64,000 nt of DNA, taken from assembly GCA_041946735.1 (NCBI GenBank), contig JBHGAY010000002.1, positions 102,368-166,367 of the forward strand. The letters run 5' to 3'. Origin of the DNA: Candidatus Eiseniibacteriota bacterium (lineage in GTDB: Bacteria > Eisenbacteria > RBG-16-71-46 > CAIMUX01 > VGJL01). A model generated the notes under the pieces. The model was given only the letters and a program-made list of their open reading frames with translations. It had not been told where the DNA came from and made no database searches. Positions within the stretch are counted from its first letter, which is position 1. Every line of letters starts with the position of its first letter. The translations under genes and the position numbers were made by a program. Below, in pieces: positions 8,951-43,834 of this stretch.

Positions 8951-9876
8951 GTTTCCTCCGGGGACTCCGTCCCCTCGCTCGCGATCCCCTTCTTCTCGCG
9001 CGCTCCCCGCTTCTCGGCCTCGAGGAGCGCCGTGTACTTCATCCCGGCGTAGAGGGCGTCCATGACGGCGACGACGAGCCCCGTCCTGCCGTCACGGAAT
9101 CCTCCGCGGACCAGGTAGCCTTTCACGAAGCGCAGCGGCGGACGGAAGAGCAGATCGAGGGCCGTCGTTCTGCGGCCTTCCGCGCGCGCCTGTTCGGCCC
9201 ACAGCCGCGACCACTCGCCGATCTTCTCGAAGTGATGCGCGACGTCGCGATAGCTCTCGTGCCAAAGGATGCCGCGCAGGCGCGCGGTCGGGCCGTCCAC
9301 CCGCACCTGCTCGTGCACGGAACGGTCGTCGATGCGGGCGCGCTCGCGATCGAAAAGACGCAGCACCGAGTCGCTTCCCCAGTTTCCGTGACGGATCTCC
9401 CGGCCAAGATACCGGCTCCGCCGCCGCATCCAGAACCCCGCCTTCCCGCGCGGCTCGGCGGTGGCGGCCGCGCAGGCGGCGGCGAGGTCCGGATCGATCC
9501 GTTCGTCGGCATCGAGCCAGAGGATCCAGCGGTGACGCGCGCGCGCGATCGCGAAGCGCTTGGAGCCGGCGAACCCTTCCCACGGACGGACGATCACCTC
9601 GGTCGCGAGCGGCCGCGCAAGCTCGGCGGTGCGGTCGCGCGTCGTCTCGTCGACGACGACGATGCGCTCCGCCGCCCAGGCCGCGGAGCGGAGGCAGGCC
9701 TCGATCCGGTCCTCCTCGTCCTTCGCGACGACGACGACCGAGACCGGCGCGGGGCGCGCGGCGGAGGGATCGGGCGGCGCCGGCGTTGCCGGCGCCGTTG
9801 CCGGCGGCGCCGTTGCCGGTGCCGGCGGCCGCGGCCGCGGCCGCGGCGGCTCAGCGGCGTGCGCCACGGGGGCCAT
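8947..9876 (-). CDS. family 2 glycosyltransferase (LPS-core type)
   Basis: From the ATG at 9876 (MAPVAHAAEP...) the protein reads VSVVVVAKDEEDRIEACL...WLDADERIDPDL, a GT-A DxD fold. A Pro/Ala-rich N-terminal extension is present. Confidence 0.8.
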   Translation of the reverse strand: MAPVAHAAEPPRPRPRPPAPATAPPATAPATPAPPDPSAARPAPVSVVVVAKDEEDRIEACLRSAAWAAERIVVVDETTRDRTAELARPLATEVIVRPWEGFAGSKRFAIARARHRWILWLDADERIDPDLAAACAAATAEPRGKAGFWMRRRSRYLGREIRHGNWGSDSVLRLFDRERARIDDRSVHEQVRVDGPTARLRGILWHESYRDVAHHFEKIGEWSRLWAEQARAEGRRTTALDLLFRPPLRFVKGYLVRGGFRDGRTGLVVAVMDALYAGMKYTALLEAEKRGAREKKGIASEGTESPEET

Positions 9877-11044: not shown

Positions 11045-11236
11045 TCGGACGGTGAGGCTAGCATGCGGGACGGAGGGCCTCAATCGGGGCGGCGACTCGA
11101 CCAGCGGCGCCGCCCTTCGCGACTCCGGCCCGCGCGGCCGGTTTCGCGTGGACTTCCCGTCGCCGGCGACCCTACAGTGGACCGCGATCCTGCCCGGCGT
11201 CCCGGGCGCTCGATGCTTGGCGATGAGGCTCTGCCG

Positions 11237-25183: not shown

Positions 25184-25381
25184 CTACTTCGAGGAGTGAA
25201 TGATCGATCTCCCGTAGCTGATCTCGCCGTTGTCGATGCGGATGTTGAAGCCGCATTCGGGATTGGAGCAGACCCAAGCCTTGAAGTTGATCGGAGCACC
25301 TTCGCGACCATAGTCGGAGAGCGGGATCAGTACGCCGTCGTGGCACTTCTTGCAGTCCGGGTACGGCTGTCCCACGTCCAT
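25184..25381 (-). CDS. small zinc-ribbon protein (YgiT/MqsA-type zinc finger only)
   Basis: The protein reads MDVGQPYPDCKKCHDG...WVCSNPECGF, a CxxC...CxxC pattern. A strong AGGGGAGGAAAG RBS lies 3 nt before the ATG at 25381; the ORF track starts 9 codons earlier. Confidence 0.5.
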   Translation of the reverse strand: MDVGQPYPDCKKCHDGVLIPLSDYGREGAPINFKAWVCSNPECGFNIRIDNGEISYGRSIIHSSK

Positions 25382-25562: not shown

Positions 25563-26942
25563 TCAGGTTTTCCGCTCCTGCTTCTTCGCGGCCGGGAAGA
25601 GGATGTTGTTCAGGATGAGACGGTACCCGGGCGAATTCGGATGCAGCTCCAGCTCGGTCGGCGGATCGCCCACCTGGTGCTGGTAGTCCTCCGGATCGTG
25701 GCCGCCGTAGAACGTGAACGTCCCCTTGCCGTAGTTGCCATGGATGTACTTCACCTCGTCGGCGCCGGGCACCTCCGCCAGCAGGATGACCGACTTCTTG
25801 AGCAGCGACTTGCGGAAGCTGGTGGTCTGCCCCATGAAGCCCCGGATCATGTTCTGGTGGCACTGGGTCAGCATCGTCGGGACCGGGTCTTCCTTGGCGG
25901 AAAAATCAAAGAGCTGGAAGTAGTCGCTCTCCTGCCCGCGAAGCGACGCTTCGCGCGTCATGTCGATGTCGGAGAACTCGTAGACGAGCGGGTTCATCTC
26001 CAACCGGAAGTCGGTGAAAGCGAGGCAACGACGGTAGTCGATCTTCTGCGCCGCGCCCGCTTCGGGAGGATCGCCGTCGTAAGGAGTGTCGACGATGTCG
26101 ACTCCCTGGGCCGCGAGGGAGATGTCGAAGCTGTCGGTCGCCGAGCACATTGCGAAGACGAACCCGCCCTGCGCAATGTACTCGCGAATCCGCTGCGAGA
26201 CCGCCTGTTTGTGCTGCCACACCTTCTGGAATCCGGCATCGTGCGCGCGTTGCTCGAACGTGCGCACCTGCTCGATGTACCAGGGCGCCGTGTGGTAGGA
26301 GGCGTAGAACTTGCCGTACTGGCCGGTGAAATCCTCGTGGTGCAGGTGGAGCCAGTCGTACTTCGGCAGATCGCCGGCGAGCACCTCTTCGTCCCAGATG
26401 TGATCGAAAGGGATCCCCGCGTAGTCGAGCGCGAGAACGACCGCATCGTCCCACGGGTCTTTCGTCGGCGGGATGTAGACGGCGACCTTCGGCGCTTTCT
26501 CGAGGAGGACGACCTCCATGTTGTTCTTCTCGATCTCGTCCAGGATCGACGCCTCGTCGGATGCCCCGATGGTCTCGTACGTGACGCCGCCGAGCGCGCA
26601 GTCGCGGCCCGTCTCCGGATCGTCTTCCATCAGGAACGAGCCGCTCCGGTAGTTCAAAAGCCACTCGACGTTCTCGCCTCGCTGCAGCGCGTGATAGGCG
26701 ACGCCGTAGGCCTTCAGATGGTTGGCCTGCGAGAGGTCCATCGGGATCAGGATCTTCGCCCAGGCGGCCGCGGGGACGAGAAGCGCCACGAGGAGCAGCG
26801 CCGCGGCGATGGCGGCCGCGACGATGGCGGTGCCGGTGCCAGGAGCGACGGCGGTGGCGGCTGCGGCGCCGGTGCCGGCGGCAGGGGCGGTGGCGGTGGC
26901 AGGGGCGGTGGCAGGGGCCGTCGCGGTCATCCGTGGGGTCAT
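25563..26942 (-). CDS. membrane-anchored class-I glutamine-amidotransferase-like (ThuA/DJ-1-like) protein, putative
   Basis: The ATG at 26942 overlaps the TPR stop (ATGA). An (ATAP) low-complexity tract precedes a TM helix IVAAAIAAALLLVALLVPAAAWA. Cys context FVFAMCSATDSF; C-terminal TFTFYGGHDPEDYQ. The family assignment is from memory. Confidence 0.55.
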   Translation of the reverse strand: MTPRMTATAPATAPATATAPAAGTGAAAATAVAPGTGTAIVAAAIAAALLLVALLVPAAAWAKILIPMDLSQANHLKAYGVAYHALQRGENVEWLLNYRSGSFLMEDDPETGRDCALGGVTYETIGASDEASILDEIEKNNMEVVLLEKAPKVAVYIPPTKDPWDDAVVLALDYAGIPFDHIWDEEVLAGDLPKYDWLHLHHEDFTGQYGKFYASYHTAPWYIEQVRTFEQRAHDAGFQKVWQHKQAVSQRIREYIAQGGFVFAMCSATDSFDISLAAQGVDIVDTPYDGDPPEAGAAQKIDYRRCLAFTDFRLEMNPLVYEFSDIDMTREASLRGQESDYFQLFDFSAKEDPVPTMLTQCHQNMIRGFMGQTTSFRKSLLKKSVILLAEVPGADEVKYIHGNYGKGTFTFYGGHDPEDYQHQVGDPPTELELHPNSPGYRLILNNILFPAAKKQERKT

Positions 26943-28747
26943 CCCTTCTTCTCCTCCGCGCCCCCGGCGTTCCGGCCGGTGCGGCGCAGGTCCTGGAGCA
27001 GCGGCCGCACCTCGCTCGCCTCGTGGCTCTTCGGAAACTTGAGGATCAGGTCCTCGTAGCGGCGCACGACCGCCTCGCTGTCGCCGTACTTCTCGCGCAT
27101 CTTGTCCGCCACGGCGCGAAGGACGGGGGGAGCGGCGAAGCCATCGGCATGCCGCGCCGCGAGGGTGTCCGCGCGGGCCGCGGCCTCGTCCAAGCGGCCG
27201 AGATCGAGGAGCAGGAGGCTCTCCTCGCGAAGAAGATCCTCCTCGGCCGGGCACCGGTCGCACTTGCTCGACGCCTCGCGCACAATCTCGAGTCCGCGAT
27301 CGAAGGAGCCGATGCGGCGCTGGTAGGCGACCTGCCCCAGCGCCGCGCCGGTGACGTCTCCCGATCCCTCGATCCGCGTCAGCAGGAGAATCCGGTCGAG
27401 CGCGTCGTTCACCCGCGTTCCGCCCTCGAACTCCTTGACGATCCGTTCGTAGAGCGCCTTCGCCTCCTCCGTCTTGCCGGAATAGAAGAGAATCTCCGCC
27501 TGCTGGAAGACCGCCTCCTCCTTGCCGGCCGGATCGCTCGCCTGCTCCTCGATGCCGTGGAGCGCCTGGCGCGCCTCTTCGTAACGGCCGGCCGCAAGCT
27601 GCATCTCGGCGAGCGCGAGACGGGCTTTCGCGAGGCGCGCGGAAGCATCGGGAGTCCGGGCGTTCTGCAGCAGCGAGACGATTTCCTGATAGGCGGCCGC
27701 CGCGCGCTCCGCGTCGTGCTGTTCGTCCGCGAGCATGCGGGCGCGCTGCTCGAGAGCGGTGAACGCCTGCCGTCCGCGTGGGAAGCTGTCGTACGCCTGG
27801 CGGAACGCGGCGTCCGCTTCGGGATAGCGCTGGAGGCGGCGAAGGGCGGAGGCGCGGTAGATCTGCGCCTGCTGCAGGTCCTCGCCGGAGAGGCCGAGCG
27901 AGGCTGCCAGATCGGCCGCGCGGAGGACCGGCTCCTTCATCTCGCGCTCATCCAGCAGCGCGAGGTGCGAGAGCATCACCTTCCCTTTCGCGCCGCGCAC
28001 CTCGTCGAGCCGCTTCGCCTCGTCGATCGATTCGTCGGCGCGGCCCAGGAACAGGAGCGCCGCGACGAGAAGCTCACGCAGCGACGGCTCCTCCGGCCTC
28101 TTCTCGATCTCCGCGCGCAGGGGAGGCAGCGCCTTCTCGCCTAGCGAGTCGGCGCGGATCAGCGACTCCATCTCGTCGCGCACCCAGACGCCGGCGGCGC
28201 CGCCGCGGCGGTGGATCTCGAGGCAGACGGAGAAGGCCTCCTCCGGATGGTGCGCCTCGCGCGCGACGCGCTCCAACTCGACGAGGAGCGGAGTCGGATC
28301 GCCTCCGGCCTCGATCCGCTCGTCGGCCGCCTTGCGGTAGAGCGCGCGCGCCTCGTCGAGACGCCCCATCTTGCGCAGGCAGGTTCCCTCGAGGAGCCGC
28401 AGGTCGGGATTGTCGGGGAACTGCTCCTTCAGGGTCTCGATCAGCCGGTACGCCTGCTCGAACTTCTCCTGCCGCATGAGGACCTGAACGTCCCGCATGC
28501 CCCGCTCGACGGTGATGCGAGGGATGGGAGCCTGCGAGCCGCTCGGGGGCGGCGCGGGCCGGCCCGGCGAAGGGATGGTGACCGCGGGCGGCTGCGGGCG
28601 GCGGTCGTCCTGCGGCCGGCCGTCCTGCGGCCGGCCGTCCTGCGCGAGCGCCGCCGAGAGGGCGAGCGAGAGCGCGAGTGAGAGCGGGAGCGGGAGCAGA
28701 AGCAGGATGGAGGCGCGAAGCGCCCGCGGGATCGCCCGGCGCCTCAC
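26939..28747 (-). CDS. secreted tetratricopeptide-repeat protein
   Basis: The GTG start at 28747 overlaps the upstream stop (GTGA). The signal peptide is VRRRAIPRALRASILLLLPLPLSLALSLALSAALAQ, followed by (DGRPQ)x2. There are many TPR-like helical hairpins. ORF-track residues 1-741 are junk. Confidence 0.7.
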   Translation of the reverse strand: MRRRAIPRALRASILLLLPLPLSLALSLALSAALAQDGRPQDGRPQDDRRPQPPAVTIPSPGRPAPPPSGSQAPIPRITVERGMRDVQVLMRQEKFEQAYRLIETLKEQFPDNPDLRLLEGTCLRKMGRLDEARALYRKAADERIEAGGDPTPLLVELERVAREAHHPEEAFSVCLEIHRRGGAAGVWVRDEMESLIRADSLGEKALPPLRAEIEKRPEEPSLRELLVAALLFLGRADESIDEAKRLDEVRGAKGKVMLSHLALLDEREMKEPVLRAADLAASLGLSGEDLQQAQIYRASALRRLQRYPEADAAFRQAYDSFPRGRQAFTALEQRARMLADEQHDAERAAAAYQEIVSLLQNARTPDASARLAKARLALAEMQLAAGRYEEARQALHGIEEQASDPAGKEEAVFQQAEILFYSGKTEEAKALYERIVKEFEGGTRVNDALDRILLLTRIEGSGDVTGAALGQVAYQRRIGSFDRGLEIVREASSKCDRCPAEEDLLREESLLLLDLGRLDEAAARADTLAARHADGFAAPPVLRAVADKMREKYGDSEAVVRRYEDLILKFPKSHEASEVRPLLQDLRRTGRNAGGAEEKKG

Positions 28748-31700
28748 TGTCCGCCGCCCTCCTGCAGCGCCCGGAAGTACTCGTCGACGATGCGGCGGAA
28801 GTCGCCCGGGATCGGATCCTGCGAGCCTTTCAGGATCCCGCGACGGAGGCGCTCCGCGGCCGTGAGGGTCGAGGACACGGGGGGAGGCGAGATCGGGTTC
28901 TCTGCGTCGATCCCGGTGCGCGAGCGCCGTTGCTCCTCGAAGTCCTGCCGGCGCACGCTGCGCTGCGCGGTCAGCAGGCGGCTCAGGATCTTCTCCTGCC
29001 TGTCGAGGATCCGCGGATCGACGTTCTTCTCGCGCATCTCCTTGACGACATCCTCCATCTCTTCGCCGAGGTCTCCCAGCCGGCCGAGGACGTCCTTGCG
29101 ATCCTGCATCGACTGCGCGAGATCCTGCAGCCCGGCGCGAATCTGCATCTGTCGCGCCGCGAGCTGCTCCATCCGTCCAGAGCCGTCCTGCGGGAGCCTC
29201 CCTCCCTGCATCTGGCTCATCGCGTCCTGCGTTTCCTGATTGAGTCCCTGCTGCTGGCTCGTCAGTCCCTGCATCTGCTGCATCGGATTCGGATTGTTGC
29301 AGGAGGAGGACGAGGAGCACATGCTCTGGTTCGATTCGAGCAGGCTCGCGACCGCCATGTCGATCGACGTCCCGGTCTGGCGGCCCAGCGTGACACCGCC
29401 GGTCCGCTGCCCGGTTTCGAACGCGTTGGTCGCGTCGCCGAGCTTCTGAAGGATCTCGCCGAGCATCTTCGCCTGTGCCCCGGTGATGAACGGCGTTTGC
29501 CGCGCGATCGCGTAGATCTCGGAGACCACGTCGGAGACGGAGCGCTCGATCCGGTTTTGCTCGACCGCCAGGTCCCGCGTGCTCTTCTGCGCCGCTCCCT
29601 CGACCAGCGATTCCTGGCTCTTGGAGAGATCGACCAGGTCGCCGGCGAGGGCGAGCAGCTTGCGCGACAGCTCCTCGGTCATCGACTGGTTCATCTGCTG
29701 CTGCATCTGGCGCATCTGATCGGCGAACTGCTGGATCTGGCTCTTCGCCTTCTTCCCGGAGCGCATCGCCCCCCGCCGGTTGTTCTTGCCCATGCACATC
29801 TTGCCCGACTGCATCTCTTCGGACGCGGACTGCAGGGCCTGCTGCGCCTGCTGCCCCTGCGGGCTCTCCAGGTTCTGCTCCATCTGGGGATGGCTCTTCT
29901 CGGCGAGCTTCGACAGCTCCTCCATCTGCTTGCGGAGCTCGGCGAGCTCCTTCTGCAGCGCCTCCTGCTGCTCGGCGAGCTTCTGCGCCTCCTCGGGACT
30001 CATCGACGCCGTCGAGTCGGGCTTCGAGGAGTCCTGCGGCGTGCCGGCCTGCTGATTGAGCTGCTCCTGCTCCTTCGCGAGCTGCTCGGCTCGCCGGATC
30101 GCCTCGTCGAGCTTCTCCTCCGCCAGCATCTTCTCGAGCATCGCGATCGTCCGGTCGAGCCCCTGCTCGATCGCCTGCTGGGTGAGCTTCATCTTCTCGA
30201 GCGCCTTCTGCACCTCCTTCGGATCGAGGGAGCGCATCGCCTCGCGCATCTGCTCGAGCATGTTGTGGAACTCGGGGCTCTGGATCTCGCGCATCATCTC
30301 CTGGATCCGCGCGATCTTCTCGACGATCTCCGGGCTGAAGAGCTGCCCTTGCTGCATCCGGTCCATCTGGCGGTCCATCGCGGTCGCCATCTGGTCCATC
30401 TTCTGCAGGATCTCCTCCTGCTTCTGGAGGAACTGCTCCATCTCGTTCTTCTGGTCCCAGTCGATCGCCTGGTCGCGCCGCATCTCGCGCGACATGTCCT
30501 CGAGCTCCTTGCGGAGGTCGACCTGCTTGTCGAGCGATTCGCGCAGATCCTCGAGGCCCTCGTGCCGCTCCTGCTCCTGCTGCGCGTACATCTGCTCGAG
30601 GGTCGGGAAGCGGATCGAGTACTCCGGCGAGACGGTCGTCTTCGGTCCGCTCACCGCGTCGTTGTCGGTCAGCTCCAGGTGGTAGCGGATCTCGTCGCCC
30701 GGCGTGAGCGCGATCTCCTCGAGGTTCCACGGGTAGGCGACGCGCGCTTCGGTCTCGCTCTGCCACCGGGTGAGAGAGATCCGGGAGGATGGTTGATCGT
30801 TGCGGTGATAGACGAGGTCGAGCTTGCGGATCCCGAAGTCGTCCGCGCAGTCCGCCTCGACGACGACTCGCATCTCGGGGGGAAGATCGACCTGCTCGCC
30901 CGGACCGACGAGGAAGAGGCTCGGCATCCGGTCGGGGATCGGATCGATCCGGAACGACTCCGACGTCCACGCGGCGCTTCGCTCTGCGCCGCCATCGCTT
31001 CCCGACAGTTCGACGCGGAACTGGTCCGCCTCGCGCACCGGGACCTTCGCCGACAGCACCCCTTCCTCGCCCGCCTCGAGCGGGATCGTCCGGCCGGAGT
31101 CGAACCGCAAGCGTCCGCGCGCGTCGGGACGGCTCACGGCGACCAGCAGCTGCGCGTCGCTCCCCTTCAGCGCGGCGATCGAGGCATGCGGGGAGAGCTC
31201 CTTCTCCGGAGCGAGCCCCGTGTAGTCGGGGAAGCGGATCCGCTTCTCGTAGCCGGTCGCGCGGTACGGCTCCTGCACCGCGACCCGGTAGGTGCGGGAG
31301 CGATGCCGATCGAGGGAAACCATGTACTCCGTCTCGGCCTGGACATCGGCGAGCGTCGCGAGGAACTCGGTCCCCACGTCCGCCTGCATCGGCAGGCGCG
31401 ACCAGGCGCTCCCCCCCGTGCGGTAGAAGAGGGCCGGTGCGCCTTCGAGGCCGACGAGGCGCGCGCGCACCGGCAGCGAGGCGCCGCGCAGGATCGAGGC
31501 GTCCCCGGGCGTGACGAGGATCTCGCTGCTGTCGATCGCCACGGCGCGTCCCGGATGCAGGATCTGCGCCGCCCCGCGCGTGACCGCCTGCGGAGCGAGC
31601 GCCGCGAGCAGGAGGATCGCGACGAGCGCGCCGCCCGCCTGGGCGAGGGGAACCGACAGGGTGCGCGAGCGAGCGAGATCACGGTAACGGATCGAGGCCG

Positions 31701-32103
31701 CCGCATCCTCGCCGCGGCGCAGGACCTCCGCGGCGACGTCGCGCGCCAGCGGATCCTCCAGGCTCGACGCCTTGCGGCCGAGCTGCAGCGCATTGATCAG
31801 CTCGTTCTTCGCGAGTCCCGCCCGCCTCTCGACCTCCAGGATGAAGGCGCCGAACGGCAGGTGACGCTGCAAGCCGAAGCGCACGGCGCGAACGACACCG
31901 CCGGCGATCCCGGCCACCGCGATCGCCGGGACGATCCACGAGGCGGCGCGCCCGTTGCCGAGTAGCCATCCGAGCAGCAGCGCGACCAAGAGGGCCGGCA
32001 AGACGATCGCGGCGGCCAGCGACGCCGCTTCGAGAGCCCGCCGCGCGCGGAACGCCGCGTAGCCGCGTCGCAGGGTGCGCAGGAGTCGAACGTGCAGCTC
32101 CAT
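28744..32103 (-). CDS. large membrane protein with N-terminal TM helices and an extended Met/Gln/Glu-rich coiled coil (DUF4175-like)
   Basis: The 1119-aa protein has TM segments AAAIVLPALLVALLLGWLLG, WIVPAIAVAGIAGGVV and GGALVAILLLAALAP. About 400 aa are heptad-like, Q/E/M/K-rich (QMREAMRSLDPKEVQKALEKMKLTQQAIEQ...). A Cys/Ser/Asn tract SMCSSSSSCNNPNPMQQMQ is present. Confidence 0.7.
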   Translation of the reverse strand: MELHVRLLRTLRRGYAAFRARRALEAASLAAAIVLPALLVALLLGWLLGNGRAASWIVPAIAVAGIAGGVVRAVRFGLQRHLPFGAFILEVERRAGLAKNELINALQLGRKASSLEDPLARDVAAEVLRRGEDAAASIRYRDLARSRTLSVPLAQAGGALVAILLLAALAPQAVTRGAAQILHPGRAVAIDSSEILVTPGDASILRGASLPVRARLVGLEGAPALFYRTGGSAWSRLPMQADVGTEFLATLADVQAETEYMVSLDRHRSRTYRVAVQEPYRATGYEKRIRFPDYTGLAPEKELSPHASIAALKGSDAQLLVAVSRPDARGRLRFDSGRTIPLEAGEEGVLSAKVPVREADQFRVELSGSDGGAERSAAWTSESFRIDPIPDRMPSLFLVGPGEQVDLPPEMRVVVEADCADDFGIRKLDLVYHRNDQPSSRISLTRWQSETEARVAYPWNLEEIALTPGDEIRYHLELTDNDAVSGPKTTVSPEYSIRFPTLEQMYAQQEQERHEGLEDLRESLDKQVDLRKELEDMSREMRRDQAIDWDQKNEMEQFLQKQEEILQKMDQMATAMDRQMDRMQQGQLFSPEIVEKIARIQEMMREIQSPEFHNMLEQMREAMRSLDPKEVQKALEKMKLTQQAIEQGLDRTIAMLEKMLAEEKLDEAIRRAEQLAKEQEQLNQQAGTPQDSSKPDSTASMSPEEAQKLAEQQEALQKELAELRKQMEELSKLAEKSHPQMEQNLESPQGQQAQQALQSASEEMQSGKMCMGKNNRRGAMRSGKKAKSQIQQFADQMRQMQQQMNQSMTEELSRKLLALAGDLVDLSKSQESLVEGAAQKSTRDLAVEQNRIERSVSDVVSEIYAIARQTPFITGAQAKMLGEILQKLGDATNAFETGQRTGGVTLGRQTGTSIDMAVASLLESNQSMCSSSSSCNNPNPMQQMQGLTSQQQGLNQETQDAMSQMQGGRLPQDGSGRMEQLAARQMQIRAGLQDLAQSMQDRKDVLGRLGDLGEEMEDVVKEMREKNVDPRILDRQEKILSRLLTAQRSVRRQDFEEQRRSRTGIDAENPISPPPVSSTLTAAERLRRGILKGSQDPIPGDFRRIVDEYFRALQEGGGQ

Positions 32104-32137
32104 CAGGGCTTCCTCCTCGTCCGGCCGCCGCCGTCTG

Positions 32138-32821
32138 TCATCGCGTCAAGGCGTATACGACCACGTTGATCGCCATCCGCATCGCCTGCTCGCGCTTCTC
32201 CGGCGGATCGTTGTGCACCTCGGGATCCTCGATCCCATCTCCGATATCGGACTGGTAGGTGTAGTAGACCATCAGCCTGTTGCCATCGAAGATCCCGAGC
32301 CCCTCGGCCGGTTTCCCGTCGTGTTCGTGGATCTTCGGGGGACCCTTCGGGAAGTCGTAGAAGGAATGGTAGATCGGGTGGCGGAACGGAACAGGGGTGA
32401 GCTTGCGGTCGGGGAAGACGCGGGCGATCTCCCTCCGGAAGCTCTCGTCCATCCCGTAGTTGTCGTCAGCGAAGAGGAAGCCGCCGTTCTCGAGATAGCG
32501 GCGCAGCCGCTCCACCTCGGCGTCGCTCCACCTCACGTTGCCGTGTCCGTTCATATAAAGGAACGGATGCTGGAAGAGATCCGGGTCGAGGATCGACACC
32601 CGGTCCTCATCCATTCGTTCGATCGCCACCGGGGTGCGGTCACGCAGCGCGCGCGCCAGGTTCGGCAGGCTCGAGGGGTTGCTGTACCAGTCGCCTCCCC
32701 CGTCGTACTTCATGCGGGCCAGAACGAAGCCGGTCGGGGCTTCGGCCGCCGACCGGTCCAGGATCCCGGAGCCCGGGATCCCGACGATGAGCAGGAGAAC
32801 GAACGAGAGGATTCTGCGCAT
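32138..32821 (-). CDS. DUF4159-like secreted protein
   Basis: Signal peptide MRRILSFVLLLIVGIPGSG. Motifs are YDGGGDWYSNPSSLPNL, HPFLYMNGHGNVRWSDAEVERLRRYLENGGFLFADDNYG. The family name is from memory. Confidence 0.65.
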   Translation of the reverse strand: MRRILSFVLLLIVGIPGSGILDRSAAEAPTGFVLARMKYDGGGDWYSNPSSLPNLARALRDRTPVAIERMDEDRVSILDPDLFQHPFLYMNGHGNVRWSDAEVERLRRYLENGGFLFADDNYGMDESFRREIARVFPDRKLTPVPFRHPIYHSFYDFPKGPPKIHEHDGKPAEGLGIFDGNRLMVYYTYQSDIGDGIEDPEVHNDPPEKREQAMRMAINVVVYALTR

Positions 32822-32999: not shown

Positions 33000-33947
33000 T
33001 CAGGCCTTCAGCTTGGTGGCGCGCGTGTCGGCGGCCGCCTTGCGGCGCTCCGAGGCGAGGGTCATATCCAGGGCGAGCGCCGACGCCACGAAGACGGAGG
33101 AATAGGTGCCGAACCCGACGCCGATCAGCATCGCGAAGGCGAAGTCGTGGATCACCCGCCCGCCCATGAAGAGCAGCGCCTCGATCGTGAAGATCACCGT
33201 CAGCCCCGTGATGATCGTGCGGCCCAGGGTCTGGTTGATCGCGAGATCGAACAGGGCCGCGTCCGGCGCCCGCCCGCTCCCCTTCAGCCTCTCGCGGATC
33301 CGGTCGAAGACGACGATCGTGTCGTTGATCGAATATCCGCCGATCGTCAGCAGGGCCGCGATGATCGGGATCGTGATCTCCTTGTTCGTGAAGGAAATGA
33401 ACGAGAGGATCACGAGCGTGTCGTGGGCGAGCGCGGCGACGCCCCCGAGCGCAAACTTGAACTCGTAACGGACCCCGACGTAGATCAGGATTCCGGCCAG
33501 CGACAGCAAAACCGCCCACAACGCCTTGCCCCGAAGCTCCTTGCCGACCCGCGGACCGACGACCTCCTCACGAAGCAGATCGCTCTTGATGCCTGGGAAA
33601 TCGGCCTGGATGGCCTCGGCCATCTTCTCCGACGGAGCCTTCTCTCCGGCCTGTCGCTCCTCGCCAGTCGGGATGCGGATCAGGAAGTCCTTGCCTCCCT
33701 CGCTCGACTGGATCTCGGCGTCGGACCATCCTGCATTGGCCAACGACGACCGCAGAGCGTCCGCCTCGAGGGCCCGATCGAAGCGGAACTCGATCAGCGT
33801 GCCACCCGCGAAGTCGACCCCCATCCGGAAGCCACCGTGCGCGATGACCGAGATCGCTCCCGCGAGGATGATCGCGAGAGAGAAGACGTAGGCGTACTTC
33901 CGGTTCTGCATGAACGGGACTCGCGCCCCATGCAACACCTGCAACAT
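33000..33947 (-). CDS. secF: protein translocase subunit SecF
   Basis: 315 aa. The protein reads ...VDFAGGTLIEFRF...SINDTIVVFDRIRE...FGTYSSVFVASALAL. Confidence 0.9.
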   Translation of the reverse strand: MLQVLHGARVPFMQNRKYAYVFSLAIILAGAISVIAHGGFRMGVDFAGGTLIEFRFDRALEADALRSSLANAGWSDAEIQSSEGGKDFLIRIPTGEERQAGEKAPSEKMAEAIQADFPGIKSDLLREEVVGPRVGKELRGKALWAVLLSLAGILIYVGVRYEFKFALGGVAALAHDTLVILSFISFTNKEITIPIIAALLTIGGYSINDTIVVFDRIRERLKGSGRAPDAALFDLAINQTLGRTIITGLTVIFTIEALLFMGGRVIHDFAFAMLIGVGFGTYSSVFVASALALDMTLASERRKAAADTRATKLKA

Positions 33948-33983: not shown

Positions 33984-35573
33984 TCAGATCGAAATGCTCT
34001 TGGCCTGGCGCCGCGCGAGGAAGGTCTCGAAGATCATCCGCGCAACGAAGACGGCCGTGTACATGTTGGCGATCAGGCCGATTCCGAGCGTGATCGCGAA
34101 TCCCTTGATCGGCCCGGTCCCGAACCGGAAGAGGATGAGCGAGCTGATCAACGTGGTCAGGTTCGAGTCGAGGATCGTCCGCCAGGCTCGATCGAATCCG
34201 TTCTCCACGGCCAAGCGCGACGATTTCCCCGCACGCAGCTCCTCCCGAATTCGTTCGAACACGAGGATGTTCGCGTCGACGGCCATGCCCACCGTCAGCA
34301 CGATCCCCGCGATGCCGGGCATCGTCAGCGTGCCGCGCAGCGCGGCCAGCCCGGCGAAGAGGAAGAACATGTTCAGCAGGAGCGTGAGGACGGCGATCAT
34401 GCCGCTCCCGCGATAGTAGATGAGCATGAACAGGACGACGATGATCGATCCGACGATCCCGGCACGAACGCCGCTGGCGACCGAGTCCTTCCCAAGCGAC
34501 GGGCCCACGGTGCGCTCCTCGACGATCCGGACGGGAGCGGGAAGGGCGCCTGCCCGGAGCACGATTGCCAGGTCCTTCGCCTCGGCGTCGCTGAACCGGC
34601 CGGTGATCTGCGCCTGACCGGTCGGAATGCGGTCCTGGATCACCGGCGCGGAGGCCACCTTGTTGTCGAGGACGATCGCGAGCTGCCGGCCGATGTTCGC
34701 GCCGGTCACCTTGCGGAACGTCGAGGCCCCCTTGTTCGTCATGGTCATCGAGACGCCGGGCGCGTTCGGGTTGCGCGGATCGAGACCGAACTTCATCACC
34801 GCGGTCGAGATCGCCTCTCCCGTCATCTCGGGACGGCGGTTCATCACGAAGAGGATCCGGCCCGTGCGACCCTGCTCGAACTGCTCGGGATCGGAGCTGA
34901 AGCCGATCGAGGCGTCGCGCGGCAGCACCTGATCGAGATCGACGTTGGCCAGGAGCGCCTGGACCTTCGGGAAGTCCTCCTCGAGGATCTCCGCTCCGCC
35001 TTGCGCGAGGTTGGGGTAGTCCCACAGAAGGTCGGTCAAGGGGTTCGCGGCCTGCGTCGAGTCGGGGAGCAAGGAGTCGGGCAGGGCATCGGACCGTCCC
35101 GCGAGGGACCGGTTCAGGCGCTCGATCGCCTGGCGGGCCTCGGCCGGCTGCTTGACGAGCTTGAACTCGAGCACGGCGGTCTGGCCGATCAGCTGCACCG
35201 CGCGGTCCTTGTCGAGGAGACCGGGGAGCTGCACGAGGATGCGGTCTTCCCCTTGCTTCTGGATGATCGGCTCGGCGACGCCGAACTGGTCGATCCGGTT
35301 GCGCAGGACTTCCATGGCCCGGTCGACCGCTTCGGACACCTGGGCTTGCGACGGGAGATTCGTCCGGTCCACCTCGAGCAGCAGGTGCATGCCGCCGACG
35401 AGGTCGAGGCCGAGCTTCAGCGCCTTCGAACGGAGGTTCTTCGCCTCCGGATCCCTGCTCGTATACCGCTCCGAAGCCGGCATGCTGTAGAGCTGGAAGC
35501 TCGGAAGCAGCGAGTAGATCGCGAGCCCCAAGAGCACCGCGAGCAGGACCAACTTCCACGTGTTACTTTTCAT
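33984..35573 (-). CDS. secD: protein translocase subunit SecD
   Basis: The protein reads MKSNTWKLVLLAVLLGLAIYSLLP...LGLDLVGGMHLLLEVD... with the SecD periplasmic and TM domains. ATG at 35573; the ORF track begins 12 codons earlier. Confidence 0.9.
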   Translation of the reverse strand: MKSNTWKLVLLAVLLGLAIYSLLPSFQLYSMPASERYTSRDPEAKNLRSKALKLGLDLVGGMHLLLEVDRTNLPSQAQVSEAVDRAMEVLRNRIDQFGVAEPIIQKQGEDRILVQLPGLLDKDRAVQLIGQTAVLEFKLVKQPAEARQAIERLNRSLAGRSDALPDSLLPDSTQAANPLTDLLWDYPNLAQGGAEILEEDFPKVQALLANVDLDQVLPRDASIGFSSDPEQFEQGRTGRILFVMNRRPEMTGEAISTAVMKFGLDPRNPNAPGVSMTMTNKGASTFRKVTGANIGRQLAIVLDNKVASAPVIQDRIPTGQAQITGRFSDAEAKDLAIVLRAGALPAPVRIVEERTVGPSLGKDSVASGVRAGIVGSIIVVLFMLIYYRGSGMIAVLTLLLNMFFLFAGLAALRGTLTMPGIAGIVLTVGMAVDANILVFERIREELRAGKSSRLAVENGFDRAWRTILDSNLTTLISSLILFRFGTGPIKGFAITLGIGLIANMYTAVFVARMIFETFLARRQAKSISI

Positions 35574-35822
35574 CTCTTCTCCCGCCTCTGGGGCGCCCGA
35601 CGCGTACAAACCACAACAAACAAAGAGGCTAGGCTGTTCCCGCCGAGGGTGTCAATGCAAAACGACGGCGATCGCGGCGCGCTGGCAGCCCCGAAGCGAG
35701 GACGGGCACCTCGATGGTGGGCGGACGGCCTGAATGCCCCGCGAAGCCGGAATCAATCGGACACCCGGCGCCCTAAGCGCGGCGAGCCGAGGGCGCAGCA
35801 ACCCAGCGAGGGGAGCAGGCCA

Positions 35823-35859
35823 AGAGAAAAGGGTGGCCGGTTTGGAGAACCGGCCACCC
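35823..35859 (-). terminator. intrinsic terminator of the OMP-lipoprotein operon
   Basis: A perfect 10-bp stem (gggtggccgg-tttggagaa-ccggccaccc) is followed on the minus strand by UUUUCUCUUG. Confidence 0.6.
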
Positions 35860-35996: not shown

Positions 35997-36629
35997 TCAG
36001 GACTGCTGGCGCGCCGCAACGAGACCGATCGGACGGTCCACCCAGCGCACGATTTTCCAGATGTTGCCTGTCTTGGCGAAGTAGAGATCTGCCTGGTCGC
36101 CGCTGACGAGATACCGGAGGTTCTCGCCGCTCTGCGACTGCCGTGTGTCGACGTAGAGGTTGACCCCGGTCAGCTGGACCTTCTGCCAACCCGGATTCAC
36201 GTCGTTGGCCGGCGTCGGCGTCCCGGCGTCGAAGCTCAGCTCGATGGTCTCGGCGATGTAGCCGTCGTGGTTCGGCTCGGACTTGCTGAACATGTTGCGG
36301 GTGGCCACCATTTCGTCGTCGAATCCCCACGACGGCGGGATGTTGTCGTCTCCCCCGACGTCGTTGGGATCGAAGATGTACTCGAAATCGTAGGCGTCCC
36401 CGCCTTGGGAGTGGCCGAGAAGCTTCTCGTATTCATCGGGATTCATCTCGACGTACGCCTTCTTCAGGTTCTGAAGCACGTTGGTGATCGTCGTCTGCTC
36501 CAGATACCCCGTGTTGCCTCCGTCGTCCGGTTTCTTGGAGTCGGTGCTCCACGGACAGCCGGACAGGCCGAACAGCACGGGAAGGAACAGGACGATCAGA
36601 AGGAACTGAGTTGGACGTCGGATTCTCAT
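35997..36629 (-). CDS. lipoprotein, paralog A (unknown function)
   Basis: MRIRRPTQFLLIVLFLPVLFGLSGC carries a lipobox. It shares blocks with the next gene (NLKKAYVEMN vs NLKAATEERV; YFAKTGNIWKIVRW vs YFKQDGLSWLIARW). Confidence 0.6.
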   Translation of the reverse strand: MRIRRPTQFLLIVLFLPVLFGLSGCPWSTDSKKPDDGGNTGYLEQTTITNVLQNLKKAYVEMNPDEYEKLLGHSQGGDAYDFEYIFDPNDVGGDDNIPPSWGFDDEMVATRNMFSKSEPNHDGYIAETIELSFDAGTPTPANDVNPGWQKVQLTGVNLYVDTRQSQSGENLRYLVSGDQADLYFAKTGNIWKIVRWVDRPIGLVAARQQS

Positions 36630-36732
36630 CGGTATCTCTCCTCGGACGCCAGTGTCACCTGTCGAAACCACTCGATTCTAGCACATGGCCATGTCTGTCT
36701 CACGCCCCCGCCGCCGCCCGGATCCACCCGTC

Positions 36733-37293
36733 TCAACTTCCGAGATTCGGGTTCAAGCGGGCGTATCCCCAGGTGGGCAGATTCGGGTCGTCCCGCTTGT
36801 CCGCCCAGCGGGCGATCAGCCAGCTCAGCCCATCCTGCTTGAAATACAACGTGCAACGTCCTTGAAAGACGATGCTGTCGGCCGTCGCCGGCCGGTAGAC
36901 GAGGCGGTACCCCAGGTCCTGGTAGTAGACCAGATCACCGGCCACGCCGGAGTCCCGGACCGTCCAGGTTAGCTGGGCCGGCATGTCGTTGCGATACAGC
37001 TCGGTCATCGCCTGGATATCGCGGCTCATCGTCCATAGGGTGTCGTCGCCCGCCGCATCGAAGGTGTCGAAGCGAAAGACGTATCCATCGGCAAGCGACT
37101 GCTGGAATCCGCTGATCACTCTCTCTTCGGTCGCCGCCTTGAGGTTCTGGAGGGCGATCCGGGTATCGGTCGGCGTCTTCCAGCTTCCCGAATCCCCGGT
37201 GGGATTCTCCGCGTCCCGCAAGTCGAAGAGGCAGCCGCTGATGGCCACGCCGGCGGCCACGACGAGCGCGCCGAAGGCGAACCCGCGGGCCAT
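36733..37293 (-). CDS. lipoprotein, paralog B (unknown function)
   Basis: MARGFAFGALVVAAGVAISGC carries a lipobox. ~25% identical to paralog A over its full length. Confidence 0.6.
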   Translation of the reverse strand: MARGFAFGALVVAAGVAISGCLFDLRDAENPTGDSGSWKTPTDTRIALQNLKAATEERVISGFQQSLADGYVFRFDTFDAAGDDTLWTMSRDIQAMTELYRNDMPAQLTWTVRDSGVAGDLVYYQDLGYRLVYRPATADSIVFQGRCTLYFKQDGLSWLIARWADKRDDPNLPTWGYARLNPNLGS

Positions 37294-37356
37294 CCGGCGC
37301 CGCCGCAACGGCCACCCGCCCCGAACCACAGCGCCGCCCGTGCTCGTCCGCATGGC

Positions 37357-39363
37357 CTAGAAGTCCCTCCGGATCTGCGCGGTGATCGTCCAGTAGTCGC
37401 GTTCCGTCATCGATTCGGTCTTCGCGAAGGAGCCGGTCAGATGGAACGTGTCGGAGAAATCGTGAGTCATGTCCGCGCGCACGGAGAACTCGCCGCGATC
37501 GGTGGCCGTCAGCCGGTTGCTCGCCAGGGCGCGCGTCTCACGACGCTCGAACTTCTGGCGCGCCTCGAGGCGTAGGCCCTGCCCGAGCGGGTAGGAGCTG
37601 GCGAGCGTCATCGCGTGCCTCGTCTCCCTCGTGGCCGGCTGATAGTACCGTGCGCCGTTCGGGTCGGAACGCACGTACTTTCCCGAATCGCGGAACTGGT
37701 ACTCGTGCACGAATTGCATGGCGAGCCGCTCGCCGAGCCCGCTCACGAAGGTGGTCACGACGCCGTTGGTCCGCACGAGCGTGTTGTTCGACTCCTCGAA
37801 GACGTACTCCGTGTAGTCCGCTTGAATCGTGTAGCGCTGGCTGAGGTTCAGCTTTCCCCGCGTGTATCCCAGCTCGCCGGAGATACGGTAGGTCTCGGTC
37901 GTGTTGTTCTGCCCGGCGCGCGCGCCGGGAACGTTCACGAGCTGGCGCTGGCCGTAGTTGACGTTGAAGATGCCGTTCCACATCGACGACGGGCGATAGT
38001 TGAGCGAGGCGTCGGTCACGGTGCGCTTCTCGTCGCGGTCGTTGGCGCGATCGTCGTAGTAATACTGCAGCAGCGTGATCTCCTCGCTCCCCTGCAGCTG
38101 GATCTTGGTGCCGAGGTTCCTCCGGACGACCCCGCGGAACTTGCGGTTCACCTGCCGGAAGCCGACCGTCTCCTGAAGCCGGTTCTTCGCTTCGTCGGAG
38201 GAGAGGGTGGCCTGGAGATCGGTGCCGGCCAGCAGCTTCACGAACTCCGGGATCTTCCACTTGGCGTCGAGCTGCCCTCTCGTCGTCAGCTTGCGGAAGT
38301 CCTTCTCCTGCATCTGATAGTCGCCGGACACCTCCCCGCGCTCGACCTCCCCCTTGAACTCGGAGCCGGTGTTCGGCTTCCAGCTGAGGCTCATCCGCGC
38401 GTTCTTGTCCCGCCCGTCCTTTCCTTCCATCGCTCCCTGGCTGTTGAACGCCTGGGTGTCCCAGTACTGGGTGAAGTCGTGGACCCAGCGGCCGGTCAGA
38501 TTGCCGGTCACAGTGCTGCTCGGGGCCCAATCGACCGCGGACTCCCAGTGCTGTGAAACGTCGTCGGAGGGGGAGTTGAGCTCGAACCGCCGTTGTCCGC
38601 TGGTGACGTCGTACTGCCGCGTGCGCGAATCGCCCGCCCGGGTCTCGCGGCGCATCGTCGTGCTCGTCCGGAACTTGCTCACGTTGCCGCTGAGAACCAT
38701 CTCATAGCGGCGGTAGGAGCCGTCCACCTTGACCGAGTCGCGGAAGGCCGTGCGCCGGCTCATGTTTCTCTCTCCGTCATAGCCGAAGCTCGCCTTCGTC
38801 GTGAGACCGAAGCCGGCCATCGGAGCGAGGAATCGGTGCAGCATCTGCTCGGGAAGCTTGGAGGCCACGGCGAGGCCGAGGCTCGTGCGATTGTTGACCT
38901 GGTCCTGATACTTGGAGAGCTGCGATTGACGGCCGAACTGTCCGTCGACCCCGACGGTCAGCCCGCCCAACCCCTTCATCGCGTAGTCGAGCTTGAGATT
39001 CATCGTCCCGCGGCGGCCGCGGAGGTCGTTCTGCGACGTGTCGCGACGATTGTTCAGGCTCCAGTCGTTCGTTAGCGAGAGGCCGGCAACGCGCCGGTAG
39101 ATGCCGAGCGACTGGTCCCAGGACCGCGAGGATCGGTTGACGGTGTAGGTGCTCGAGTAGCTCGGGTGGAAGTCGATCCGGTCGAGGAAACGGTCGCTCG
39201 GAGCGGCGGGCCGGGCGGGCGGGGGAGCCGGTTCGGCGGGAGGCTGGGTCTGGCCGAACACCGGGTCGCCGGCCGCCATCAGGGCGAGAAGCCCCGTGCC
39301 GGCGAGGAGGTAGCGGAGTGCGGAGTGGATGGGTGAAGCCTCCCTCGAGATCCCGTCTGCCAA
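37357..39363 (-). CDS. outer-membrane β-barrel protein of unknown family (~668 aa)
   Basis: A signal-like N-terminus (...SALRYLLAGTGLLALMAAGDPVFGQ). The TTG at 39363 is a tentative start. Amphipathic β-strands alternate with Y/R/N/S/T-rich loops. The C-terminus ...ITAQIRRDF ends in an aromatic residue. Confidence 0.6.
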   Translation of the reverse strand: MADGISREASPIHSALRYLLAGTGLLALMAAGDPVFGQTQPPAEPAPPPARPAAPSDRFLDRIDFHPSYSSTYTVNRSSRSWDQSLGIYRRVAGLSLTNDWSLNNRRDTSQNDLRGRRGTMNLKLDYAMKGLGGLTVGVDGQFGRQSQLSKYQDQVNNRTSLGLAVASKLPEQMLHRFLAPMAGFGLTTKASFGYDGERNMSRRTAFRDSVKVDGSYRRYEMVLSGNVSKFRTSTTMRRETRAGDSRTRQYDVTSGQRRFELNSPSDDVSQHWESAVDWAPSSTVTGNLTGRWVHDFTQYWDTQAFNSQGAMEGKDGRDKNARMSLSWKPNTGSEFKGEVERGEVSGDYQMQEKDFRKLTTRGQLDAKWKIPEFVKLLAGTDLQATLSSDEAKNRLQETVGFRQVNRKFRGVVRRNLGTKIQLQGSEEITLLQYYYDDRANDRDEKRTVTDASLNYRPSSMWNGIFNVNYGQRQLVNVPGARAGQNNTTETYRISGELGYTRGKLNLSQRYTIQADYTEYVFEESNNTLVRTNGVVTTFVSGLGERLAMQFVHEYQFRDSGKYVRSDPNGARYYQPATRETRHAMTLASSYPLGQGLRLEARQKFERRETRALASNRLTATDRGEFSVRADMTHDFSDTFHLTGSFAKTESMTERDYWTITAQIRRDF

Positions 39364-39525
39364 GCCCGCCGTTGCCGGATCGGTCCGATGCCTGCATCCG
39401 TTTCTGGCTTCGGCCGGCAAGGCGCGGTGGTTCACGTTACGGAGCTTTCCTCTCCCGATCAAGCCACGCTCCTCAAGGAGTTCCGGTCCCCAGCCGATGA
39501 ACCCTGGGGAGTTCCCGGGGGAGCT

Positions 39526-43611: not shown

Positions 43612-43834
43612 CCATTCCCCCCTTTTGCCGGGTGCATCGGCGGTTTGCGCTCCCCCAGGCGAAGGAGAGCGCCGGTCAGTCCAGGACGGCCGTGGTTCCG
43701 TAGTCGTTCAATTGTAGTGGATCTCGGGACCTCCGGCAAGGAGGCGGGCCCTCGTGCGAGCCTTCGCGCGGGCCTCGTGCGGGCCTTCGCTCGTCCCACC
43801 GCCGATTCCCGGAGGCGCCGTCTCGCTGCTGCGA

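Follow-up and report, generated by a model that had tools for sequence, protein, structure and literature searches.

A cluster of four genes for apparently extracytoplasmic proteins in Candidatus Eisenbacteria, possibly a MoxR-less and VWA-less derivative of the Bat-like envelope clusters with a putative cysteine enzyme

Envelope gene clusters associated with Bat and MoxR proteins are widespread, and the Bacteroides aerotolerance (Bat) operon is the prototype from which the Bat-like clusters take their name. Another relevant protein is RSP_0730 of Rhodobacter sphaeroides, a TIGR02302 protein that is presumably of the DUF4175 type. The CenKR cell-envelope regulon includes RSP_0730, which is not essential (PMC9275681). 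The present study concerns four adjacent genes in the genome of a member of Candidatus Eisenbacteria, situated in a stretch of 64,000 nucleotides (contig JBHGAY010000002.1, positions 102,368 to 166,367) that is referred to below as the window. The genes are designated g1 (the DUF4159 gene), g2 (the gene for a 1119-aa protein), g3 (the tetratricopeptide repeat, or TPR, gene) and g4 (the fourth gene). It is proposed, tentatively and with slightly less than even confidence, that the products of g1 to g4 form one periplasmic assembly in which g4 is catalytic, and that the cluster is a derivative of the MoxR/DUF58/BatA envelope clusters, lacking MoxR and VWA and typical of the Fibrobacteres-Chlorobi-Bacteroidetes (FCB) superphylum.

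The four open reading frames (ORFs), all on the minus strand, were confirmed at the coordinates given in a preliminary description of this DNA, which had been made from the sequence alone:

32138..32821, minus strand: g1, predicted secreted DUF4159 protein, 227 aa.
28744..32103, minus strand: g2, DUF4175-related stalk protein anchored in the inner membrane, 1119 aa (from the translation, Pfam and an AlphaFold, AF2, model).
26939..28747, minus strand: g3, predicted secreted TPR protein, 602 aa, with a GTG start that overlaps the g2 stop codon.
25563..26942, minus strand: g4, predicted secreted protein with a class I glutamine amidotransferase-like (GATase1-like) fold, 459 aa, of a family uncatalogued in Pfam and NCBIfam.

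The genes called independently on a Logan contig of identical sequence encode 227, 1119, 602 and 459 aa and have equal overlaps. The translational coupling that had been proposed was borne out at both junctions when the sequence was read directly: g2 and g3 overlap by 4 nt (GTGA at 28747-28744), as do g3 and g4 (ATGA at 26942-26939), and each overlap is preceded by an AGGAGG-like Shine-Dalgarno site. The gap between g1 and g2 was measured as 34 nt, not the 35 nt reported earlier, and AGGAGG precedes the g2 ATG.

Hydropathy analysis revealed hydrophobic N-termini on the products of g1, g3 and g4 and three transmembrane (TM) segments on that of g2, and all four products appear, on sequence grounds, to be extracytoplasmic. 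In the assembly envisaged here, g2 would provide the inner-membrane anchor and stalk, with its Ig-like domains and a helical stack of about 560 aa projecting into the periplasm. The g1 protein would be a GATase1-fold subunit free of a nucleophile, probably serving in binding or regulation, and the g3 protein would be a TPR adaptor, translationally coupled to g4. The g4 protein would be the Sec-exported catalytic subunit, with a triad of the Cys266 / His415 / Glu418 type, and would most likely hydrolyse or transfer an amide bond (of the gamma-glutamyl type) on an envelope substrate.

Evidence for a relationship to the Bat-like clusters was obtained from distant homologues of g2, three of which (P0171, P0173 and P0182) are situated in MoxR-DUF58-BatA clusters of Acidobacteria (loci L086, L087 and L088). 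The Vicinamibacterales cluster contains, in this order, genes for a TPR protein (with Peptidase_MA_2), DUF4159, MoxR (AAA_3), DUF58, BatA_N-VWA, the g2 homologue, GATase1_like (PF07090) and a 330-aa protein. The gene set of a second Acidobacterial contig is the same, except that a single ORF (L087, 22015-22913) encodes both TPR and DUF4159; in the manner of a Rosetta stone, this fusion hints that the two parts cooperate. The third cluster (L088) comprises, again in order, MoxR, DUF58, BatA, a 944-aa protein and the g2 homologue; an hhalign comparison of g2 with the 944-aa protein found nothing. The clusters of P0171 and P0173 also carry DUF4159, TPR and GATase1_like genes. Because of these Acidobacterial MoxR clusters, the TPR, DUF4159, DUF4175-type stalk and GATase1-fold proteins of the window are interpreted as the accessory parts of a Bat-like cluster. 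Among 85 related loci searched with tblastn, a single cluster of the FCB type was linked to MoxR: in a member of Latescibacterota (L077), a MoxR (AAA_3) gene (11238-12215) directly follows g4 and is followed in turn by a gene for a MurD-like ligase.

Conservation is highest in the g4 protein, which is also the most informative of the four, a point that the preliminary description passed over. The glutamine amidotransferase-like C-terminal domain suspected there was recovered in the AlphaFold model (predicted local distance difference test, pLDDT, 77), which has a class I amidotransferase-like fold and matches other GATase1-like folds. The features of the gene that bear on its function are as follows:

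26757..26942, minus strand: N-terminus, residues 1-62, a long Ala/Thr/Pro-repeat stretch and then a signal peptide with predicted cleavage between AWA and K.
26328..26348, minus strand: H199-L-H-H-E-D-F205, an invariant His/acid-rich loop after strand 197-200.
26145..26147, minus strand: codon of Cys266, the putative nucleophile, in A-M-C-S-A (codon checked).
25689..25700, minus strand: H415-D-P-E418, the putative His/acid part of the triad, after the last β-strand.

A membrane anchor had been assigned to g4, but a cleavable signal peptide is likelier, with cleavage between AWA and KILIPMD as in the homologues, whose signal peptides of 20-25 aa end in AxA just before (K/E)ILIPMD. In-frame tandem repeats (Ala/Thr/Pro) lie at 26825-26927 in the 5′ part of the gene, and the true start codon could be further downstream. 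An alignment of 48 g4-family sequences has more than 100 invariant columns. Cys266 is invariant in 48/48, and also in paralogues that carry a C-terminal domain (CTD) for sorting by the type IX secretion system (T9SS). It is found in A264-M-C266-S-A268, between a strand (261-265) and a helix (267-277) of the AF2 model, in the small-x-Cys-x-small arrangement of a nucleophile elbow. H415-D-P-E418 is invariant in the family (in the CTD paralogues H415-D-P is invariant and E418 nearly so) and resembles the H-P-E motif of class I amidotransferases. The loop from H199 to F205 could, on the basis of the model, be a substrate- or metal-binding site. The protein also has an extra N-terminal α/β subdomain of about 90 aa, and an insert at residues 333-371 (about 25830-25946; DYFxLFDFSAKEDPVPTMLTQ...GFMGQTT) that is highly conserved with a pLDDT below 50. 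Its C-terminal tail (25566-25598) carries a conserved basic AAKKxxxKT, common to the paralogues without a T9SS sorting domain. The insert may be a partner-binding or lid element, and the basic tail may bind the TPR protein.

No match to g4 was found in Pfam or in NCBIfam, including Por_Secre_tail (TIGR04183); the protein ends in ...AAKKQERKT. When the 48 family members were scanned against Pfam at a permissive threshold, only faint matches to BPL_N were obtained (E values of 0.055 or higher), and none to GATase or Peptidase_C26. Searches of the PDB with the single sequence and with a profile gave nothing meaningful, and the best 150 matches of the g4 profile among 1.84 billion representative proteins were all family members or fragments, with no bridge to a known family. 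The relatives, of about 420 aa, number more than 8000; they form few full-length clusters at 50 % identity, and those from species-representative genomes are 56-79 % identical to g4 across phyla. The relatives in these genomes come from Eisenbacteria, Ignavibacteria, Bacteroidota, Cloacimonadota, KSB1, Marinimicrobia, Krumholzibacteria, Latescibacterota, Zixibacteria and Gemmatimonadota. Six paralogues of about 500 aa (P0306, P0308, P0313, P0316, P0318 and P0326), brought to light by the search of 1.84 billion proteins, have a C-terminal T9SS type A sorting domain (TIGR04183) above the cut-off, with E values from 1e-8 to 1e-13, and retain Cys266, His415-Asp-Pro and the HHEDFTGQ motif. The one locus of such a paralogue that was inspected (L085, 5745-7271) is stand-alone. 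Judging from the C-terminal sorting domain, g4-type proteins would be cell-surface T9SS cargo in some lineages.

Homologues of g4 are named 'asparagine synthetase B' in NCBI and UniRef, which is a misannotation. AsnB is cytoplasmic and combines a class II (Ntn) amidotransferase domain at its N-terminus with an Asn_synthase domain. This identity was rejected for g4 in view of its signal peptide, its class I-like fold and the absence of a Pfam or NCBIfam match. A literature search for 'asparagine synthetase B' together with T9SS or Bacteroidetes yielded no functional work. One of the deposited homologues, the 416-aa Eisenbacteria protein P0001 at NCBI, begins with MYKRQ..., which we take to be a translated Nextera transposase adapter (ATGTATAAGAGACAG); the end of the deposited contig is probably adapter-contaminated.

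The g1 protein is a member of the DUF4159 family, as had been supposed (PF13709; E value 6e-67; 225.5 bits against a cut-off of 25.9; profile positions 2-202 of 202). Its secretion had also been anticipated, and a hydrophobic, signal-like N-terminus was identified by hydropathy scan at residues 2-23. It matches PDB entry 4i66 (Hoch_4089, solved and uncharacterised) with an E value of 3e-14, and is 100 % identical to a 227-aa NCBI protein from a metagenome-assembled genome (MAG) of Candidatus Eisenbacteria. DUF4159 has been placed in the Pfam Glutaminase_I clan on structural grounds (PMC4702930). There is no nucleophile Cys in g1, which has GGFLFADD where g4 has GGFVFAMC. An hhalign comparison of g4 with g1 aligned 18 columns only, spanning a helix and the GGFxFA strand, at 62 % probability; as a sequence comparison this is suggestive of a common fold, not proof of paralogy.

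The lack of a nucleophile in g1 is also what would be expected under a rather improbable alternative, namely that the cluster encodes a purely structural tether or spacer, anchored in the inner membrane and extending through the periplasm, in which both GATase1-fold proteins are non-catalytic binding modules like GH42 domain M, ThuA, the IFT52 GIFT domain and OST48. The make-up of g2 agrees with such a role, as it consists of Ig-like domains and long helices, with no enzyme-like domain. The elbow Cys and the HDPE and HHED motifs of g4 are, however, invariant across phyla and in the T9SS-sorted paralogues, and an identity as high as that of g4 between phyla (56-79 %) would be unusual for a mere scaffold.

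The neighbourhoods of g4 were surveyed with iterated local hidden Markov models over the ORFs of 80 g4 loci. Those with at least 7 kb of sequence upstream of g4 (53 loci) were treated as informative, and TPR genes were counted in the 68 loci with at least 2.2 kb upstream. In 25 of the 53 loci, g1 and g2 precede g4 with order and strand unchanged, and 22 of those 25 have a full-length g3 as well. A TPR gene without g1 or g2 was found in 16/53 loci, and g4 with neither in 12/53. In 47 of the 68 loci, a TPR gene encoding about 600 aa is found no more than 4 kb from g4, and at least 11 loci show the g3/g4 overlap of 4 nt. In an all-against-all clustering, no neighbour families of g4 other than g1, g2 and g3 recurred widely. 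Eisenbacteria, KSB1, Marinimicrobia, Krumholzibacteria (Krumholzibacteriia), Latescibacterota and Gemmatimonadota are the groups in which the full cluster is typically found. The lack of co-conservation in related genomes that, according to the preliminary description, would have refuted its reading was therefore not observed, the genes being conserved together in several phyla. The cluster is not the hallmark of Bacteroidota that it had been thought to resemble, since most of the loci recovered from Bacteroidota, Ignavibacteria and Cloacimonadota have g4 alone or with a TPR gene only; a Bacteroidota-specific cluster was rejected, as the complete g1-g4 order was found across other FCB phyla instead. 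A more fitting view is that of a broad g3-g4 core to which a g1-g2 pair is joined in many phyla.

The same survey bears on a second explanation, which is considered doubtful: that two independent modules lie side by side, one a Bat-like DUF4159-DUF4175 pair and the other an FCB-wide housekeeping TPR-g4 pair, with a common envelope location and operon and no joint complex or pathway. The loci with g3 and g4 in the absence of g1 and g2 (16/53), those with g4 alone (12/53) and the TPR-clpX-g4 arrangement of Ignavibacteria all speak for it, as do the Acidobacterial MoxR clusters, which hold homologues of g1 and g2 without any g4-family gene. Against independence of this kind stand the fixed g1-g2-g3-g4 order and the stop-start overlaps of g2/g3 and g3/g4 in at least six phylum-level lineages. 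Moreover, the Acidobacterial clusters also have a TPR protein and a GATase1-fold protein, so that the four types of part recur together.

Two further features of the g4 loci were observed. In loci of the Ignavibacteria type, a gene of approximately 417 codons is situated between the TPR gene and g4, with a constant gap of about 1.3 kb (L010, L012, L026, L033, L037, L044, L046, L056, L059, L064, L073, L075 and L080); Pfam analysis established its identity as clpX in L073 only. In three loci without g1-g3, a gene for an extracytoplasmic function (ECF)-type sigma factor is located directly upstream of g4 on the same strand (L008, 9262-9894; L021, 914-1543; L030, 9154-9870).

A number of results weigh against the proposal of a single assembly with g4 as its catalytic member. 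In 28 of the 53 loci, g4 is found without g1 and g2 within 10 kb; in Flavobacteriia it is wholly alone (after dnaB in a MAG of that group), and some of its paralogues are stand-alone T9SS cargo. It follows from the many loci of this kind that g4 is not strictly dependent on g1 or g2. MoxR, DUF58 and BatA/VWA genes are absent from the window, according to tblastn with an Acidobacterial MoxR query and Pfam analysis of the neighbours, and may lie elsewhere in the genome; tblastn found no DUF58 or BatA_N/VWA match either in the window or among the 85 related loci searched. The analogy with Bat-like clusters drawn in the preliminary description is therefore upheld as regards the distant g2 homologues within MoxR-DUF58-BatA clusters, but not as regards MoxR, DUF58 and VWA/BatA themselves. 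No sequence homology was detected by hhalign between g4 and the Acidobacterial GATase1_like (PF07090) protein, and these two proteins may be analogous and not orthologous. Structurally, g4 is closest to the non-catalytic GATase1-like domains GH42-M, ThuA and 3rht, and the pLDDT of the H415-D-P-E418 loop is only about 50-60, which makes the modelled geometry of the triad low in confidence. Finally, deletion of the Bat genes in Leptospira produced no phenotype, including under oxidative stress (PMC3557215). This result and the membership of RSP_0730 in the CenKR regulon fit an envelope role and give no mechanism.

The preliminary description had guessed that g2 is a DUF4175-like protein anchored in the membrane. 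Both points were supported, the first by way of homologues and the second by three hydrophobic helices. The AF2 model of g2 has a pLDDT of 84.5, and the following regions were distinguished:

31570..32040, minus strand: hydrophobic helices, residues 22-178 (helices 22-52, 53-78 and 148-178; hydropathy scan and AF2 helices).
30604..31524, minus strand: Ig/FN3-like domains, residues 194-500, three tandem β-sandwiches (AF2 secondary structure and Foldseek).
28927..30600, minus strand: helical region, residues 502-1059, segmented and rich in Gln, Glu and Met (AF2 and composition).
29299..29319, minus strand: C929-SSSSS-C935 loop, of the form Cys-(Ser/Asn/Ala/Gly)n-Cys, followed by NNPNP.

The protein is best described as a divergent relative of DUF4175. 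Its own match to that family (PF13779; residues 290-501, profile positions 191-394 of 825) scored 22.1 bits, which is below the gathering cut-off of 27.3. It is homologous, however, to the PF13779-annotated protein P0144 (E value 4e-132), and eight further homologues have precomputed PF13779 annotations (P0145, P0152, P0157, P0159, P0163, P0164, P0166 and P0173). It also has the architecture of the DUF4175 type, with N-terminal TM helices and a long Gln/Glu-rich extracytoplasmic region. There was no match at E ≤ 0.01 in NCBIfam, including TIGR02302. The DUF4175 match described in the literature for AdvA of Acinetobacter covers the N-terminal TM region only. The loop between the second and third TM helices of g2 is basic, helical and predicted to be cytoplasmic, and from the distribution of positive charges we infer a topology with the N-terminus in and the C-terminus out. 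Residues 194-500 matched tandem Ig/FN3/MG arrays in Foldseek with E values of about 1e-6, and the residues that are invariant in the family (P292, G314, P401, D421, D422 and D480) all fall within this β-sandwich region.

The richness of g2 in Gln, Glu, Met and Lys was confirmed; the single coiled coil of about 400 aa that had been described was not, as AF2 models residues 502-1059 (about 560 aa) as wholly helical and composed of many helices. Residues 500-1000 contain 15.6 % Gln, 11.0 % Glu, 7.6 % Met and 5.8 % Lys, compared with 2.9, 6.4, 1.7 and 2.5 %, respectively, in the other genes of the window, an excess of about 5-fold for Gln and about 4.5-fold for Met. The Cys/Ser/Asn tract, which had been taken for the end of the protein, is an internal loop of low confidence (pLDDT below 50 at residues 931-938). 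Homologues with at least about 40 % identity retain it as C-x5-8-C, and more distant ones lack it; C929 and C935 possibly form a small periplasmic disulfide loop.

Gln/Glu richness is general across the homologues of g2. High Met content (5-7 %) was observed only in the Eisenbacteria clade, distant homologues having 1-3 %. These figures are relevant to an idea that is now regarded as very improbable. The preliminary description had suggested that the Met-rich region could act as a sink for redox equivalents or methionine oxidation; in its extended form, the idea is that such a sink, or an array of Cu(I)-binding Met motifs, would be the purpose of the operon. The Met content relative to background would accord with it, as would the relationship of the cluster to 'aerotolerance' systems and the spacing of the Met residues at i, i+3/4 (13 MxxM/MxxxM motifs versus 5.3 ± 2.1 in shuffled sequences). 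Such spacing is, however, the expectation for core positions of helical bundles, and the Met content declines beyond the Eisenbacteria clade, where the cluster is nonetheless conserved. In addition, the Leptospira Bat proteins lack an oxidative-stress phenotype (PMC3557215). A methionine sink as a conserved core function was rejected, both the Met richness and the Cys tract being confined to the Eisenbacteria clade; since the Met richness is clade-specific, it is not central, and a role as a methionine sink would be at most a lineage-specific addition.

The product of g3 is a TPR protein that starts from the GTG overlapping the g2 stop codon and is predicted to be secreted, as described previously. 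It matches many Pfam TPR families, with weak NCBIfam matches of the YbgF and BamD types, and consists of a signal peptide, a Pro/Gln-rich repeat linker and the TPR repeats. In-frame tandem repeats (QDGRP and LSLA) are present at 28598-28697. The repeats at the 5′ ends of g3 and g4 lengthen the N-terminal signal or linker regions relative to those of the homologues.

The position of the cluster beside secDF in a high-G+C genome, reported earlier, was verified by Pfam analysis of the neighbouring genes and by the G+C content of the window (approximately 69 %). The relevant features are:

33984-35609, minus strand: secD, directly upstream of the cluster on the same strand (Pfam).
33000-33947, minus strand: secF, directly upstream of g1 with a gap of 178 nt (Pfam).
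35831-35859, minus strand: strong terminator-like hairpin just upstream of secD, with a 12-bp stem containing 9 GC pairs and then a T tract (terminator scan).

The terminator scan revealed no such site between secF and g1, and none inside the cluster. Because the hairpin lies upstream of secD and comparable sites are absent from secF-g1 and from the cluster, co-transcription of g1-g4 with secDF is possible, and the hairpin possibly marks the start, at secD, of a secDF-g1-g4 transcription unit. A scan for sigma-70-like promoters found none, and an Rfam scan of the window returned no RNA families. Upstream secDF genes were present in 9 of the 25 loci carrying g1 and g2, and surA-like genes in KSB1 and one other lineage, so that secDF or surA-like genes precede the cluster in three lineages.

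This context raises the question of whether the cluster assists protein export, the biogenesis of the outer membrane or type IX secretion, acting as a periplasmic platform that holds or processes Sec-exported clients. Its location immediately after secDF in Eisenbacteria, from which no terminator separates it, and immediately after surA-like genes in KSB1 and one other lineage would suit such a function. So would the T9SS type A sorting domain of some g4 paralogues and the FlgD_ig-type C-termini of several window proteins, which we read as T9SS-cargo-like. The FCB-wide range of the g4 family would overlap with that of the T9SS, which occurs in the same superphylum. An export function is nevertheless distinctly improbable: the neighbouring genes vary by lineage, with secDF adjacent in just 9/25 clusters, a CTD makes the paralogues cargo and not machinery, and no homology to known T9SS, Bam or Sec components was detected in Pfam or NCBIfam.

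Several other ORFs of the window were recorded. A 65-aa ORF between g4 and a HAD hydrolase gene (25184-25381, minus strand) contains two Cys pairs (CxxC ... CxxxxC) and is zinc-ribbon-like; the gene calls of the Logan contig include it as well, as do those of a related Eisenbacteria genome, where it has 73 aa. Upstream of the cluster, several ORFs of 206-942 aa at 36733-40185 and 35997-36671 (both minus strand) have no Pfam match. One of these is 701 aa long in the gene calls of the Logan contig, and the 224-aa ORF among them is kept upstream of secD in related Eisenbacteria loci. Three large proteins of the window end in FlgD_ig-like domains (5678-8431 and 9536-13264, plus strand; 41092-43707, minus strand), one being a subtilase with a fervidolysin-like prodomain. 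C-termini of this type are, in our reading, characteristic of T9SS cargo in these phyla, and their presence suggests a T9SS in this organism.

No paper treating this cluster was found in the literature searched. Full-text searches for DUF4159, DUF4175 and the PF and TIGR accessions revealed no functional work, in agreement with the earlier statement that no member has an assigned biochemical function. An anti-phage defence system was also considered and rejected, as none of the four proteins had a PADLOC match. Whereas g1, g2 and g3 belong to families that are catalogued but uncharacterised, the family of g4 has no entry in Pfam or NCBIfam and is misnamed, and correction of the 'asparagine synthetase B' annotation is useful in itself. 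Cys266 offers an experimental handle on this family of more than 8000 sequences. A bolder reading, which at present seems unlikely, is that the g4 family is an undescribed, FCB-wide secreted cysteine amidohydrolase or transamidase whose substrate is universal in the envelope, such as a gamma-glutamyl or isopeptide bond of peptidoglycan, a surface protein or a lipid, and which works within an ATPase-independent periplasmic machine that includes the TPR and DUF4159-DUF4175 proteins. If g4 does act on peptidoglycan or another universal envelope component, it would constitute a new class of envelope enzyme in Bacteroidota-related bacteria, and an ATPase-independent machine of this kind would reveal what the Bat/MoxR envelope clusters do.

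Four described systems can be compared with this locus. Asparagine synthetase B has only the word 'amidotransferase' in common with g4, which has a class I-like fold and a signal peptide and no AsnB domains. The class I glutamine amidotransferase-like superfamily (sub-cluster ThuA / GATase1_like / Glyco_hydro_42M) has PdxT, HisH, PurQ and the peptidase C26 gamma-glutamyl hydrolases as catalytic members. The class I amidotransferases share with g4 a Cys at a strand-helix elbow and a His-x-Pro-Glu after the last strand, and g1, through DUF4159, is in the same clan (Glutaminase_I). In contrast to these enzymes, g4 has no sequence match in Pfam or the PDB, even with a profile, is Sec-exported rather than cytoplasmic, has no synthase partner, and has the N-terminal subdomain of about 90 aa and the insert at residues 333-371. 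It differs from its closest structural relatives in that an invariant Cys at the nucleophile elbow occurs only in g4.

The TIGR02302/DUF4175 proteins of α-Proteobacteria resemble g2 in their length and N-terminal TM helices, and those of TIGR02302 have a Gln-rich low-complexity extracytoplasmic region. Unlike them, g2 has no TIGR02302 match and a PF13779 match below the cut-off only, together with three Ig-like domains and a clade-specific enrichment in Met.

The closest counterparts of the cluster as a whole are the Bat-like MoxR-DUF58-BatA clusters. These contain a DUF4159 protein with 34 % identity to g1 and a homologue of the β-sandwich region of g2 (28 % identity; E value 8e-17). In both, a TPR protein, a DUF4159 protein, a long membrane-anchored Gln/Glu-rich protein and a GATase1-fold protein recur, with products predicted to be located in the envelope. 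The window cluster differs in its gene order, in the absence of genes for a MoxR ATPase, DUF58 and BatA/VWA, and in its GATase1-fold member, which is not homologous in sequence to the PF07090 protein and is probably catalytic. The FCB variant has dropped the cytoplasmic ATPase and VWA parts, and four exported proteins remain, one of which, g4, has on sequence grounds the look of a true thiol enzyme that is subject to very strong purifying selection.

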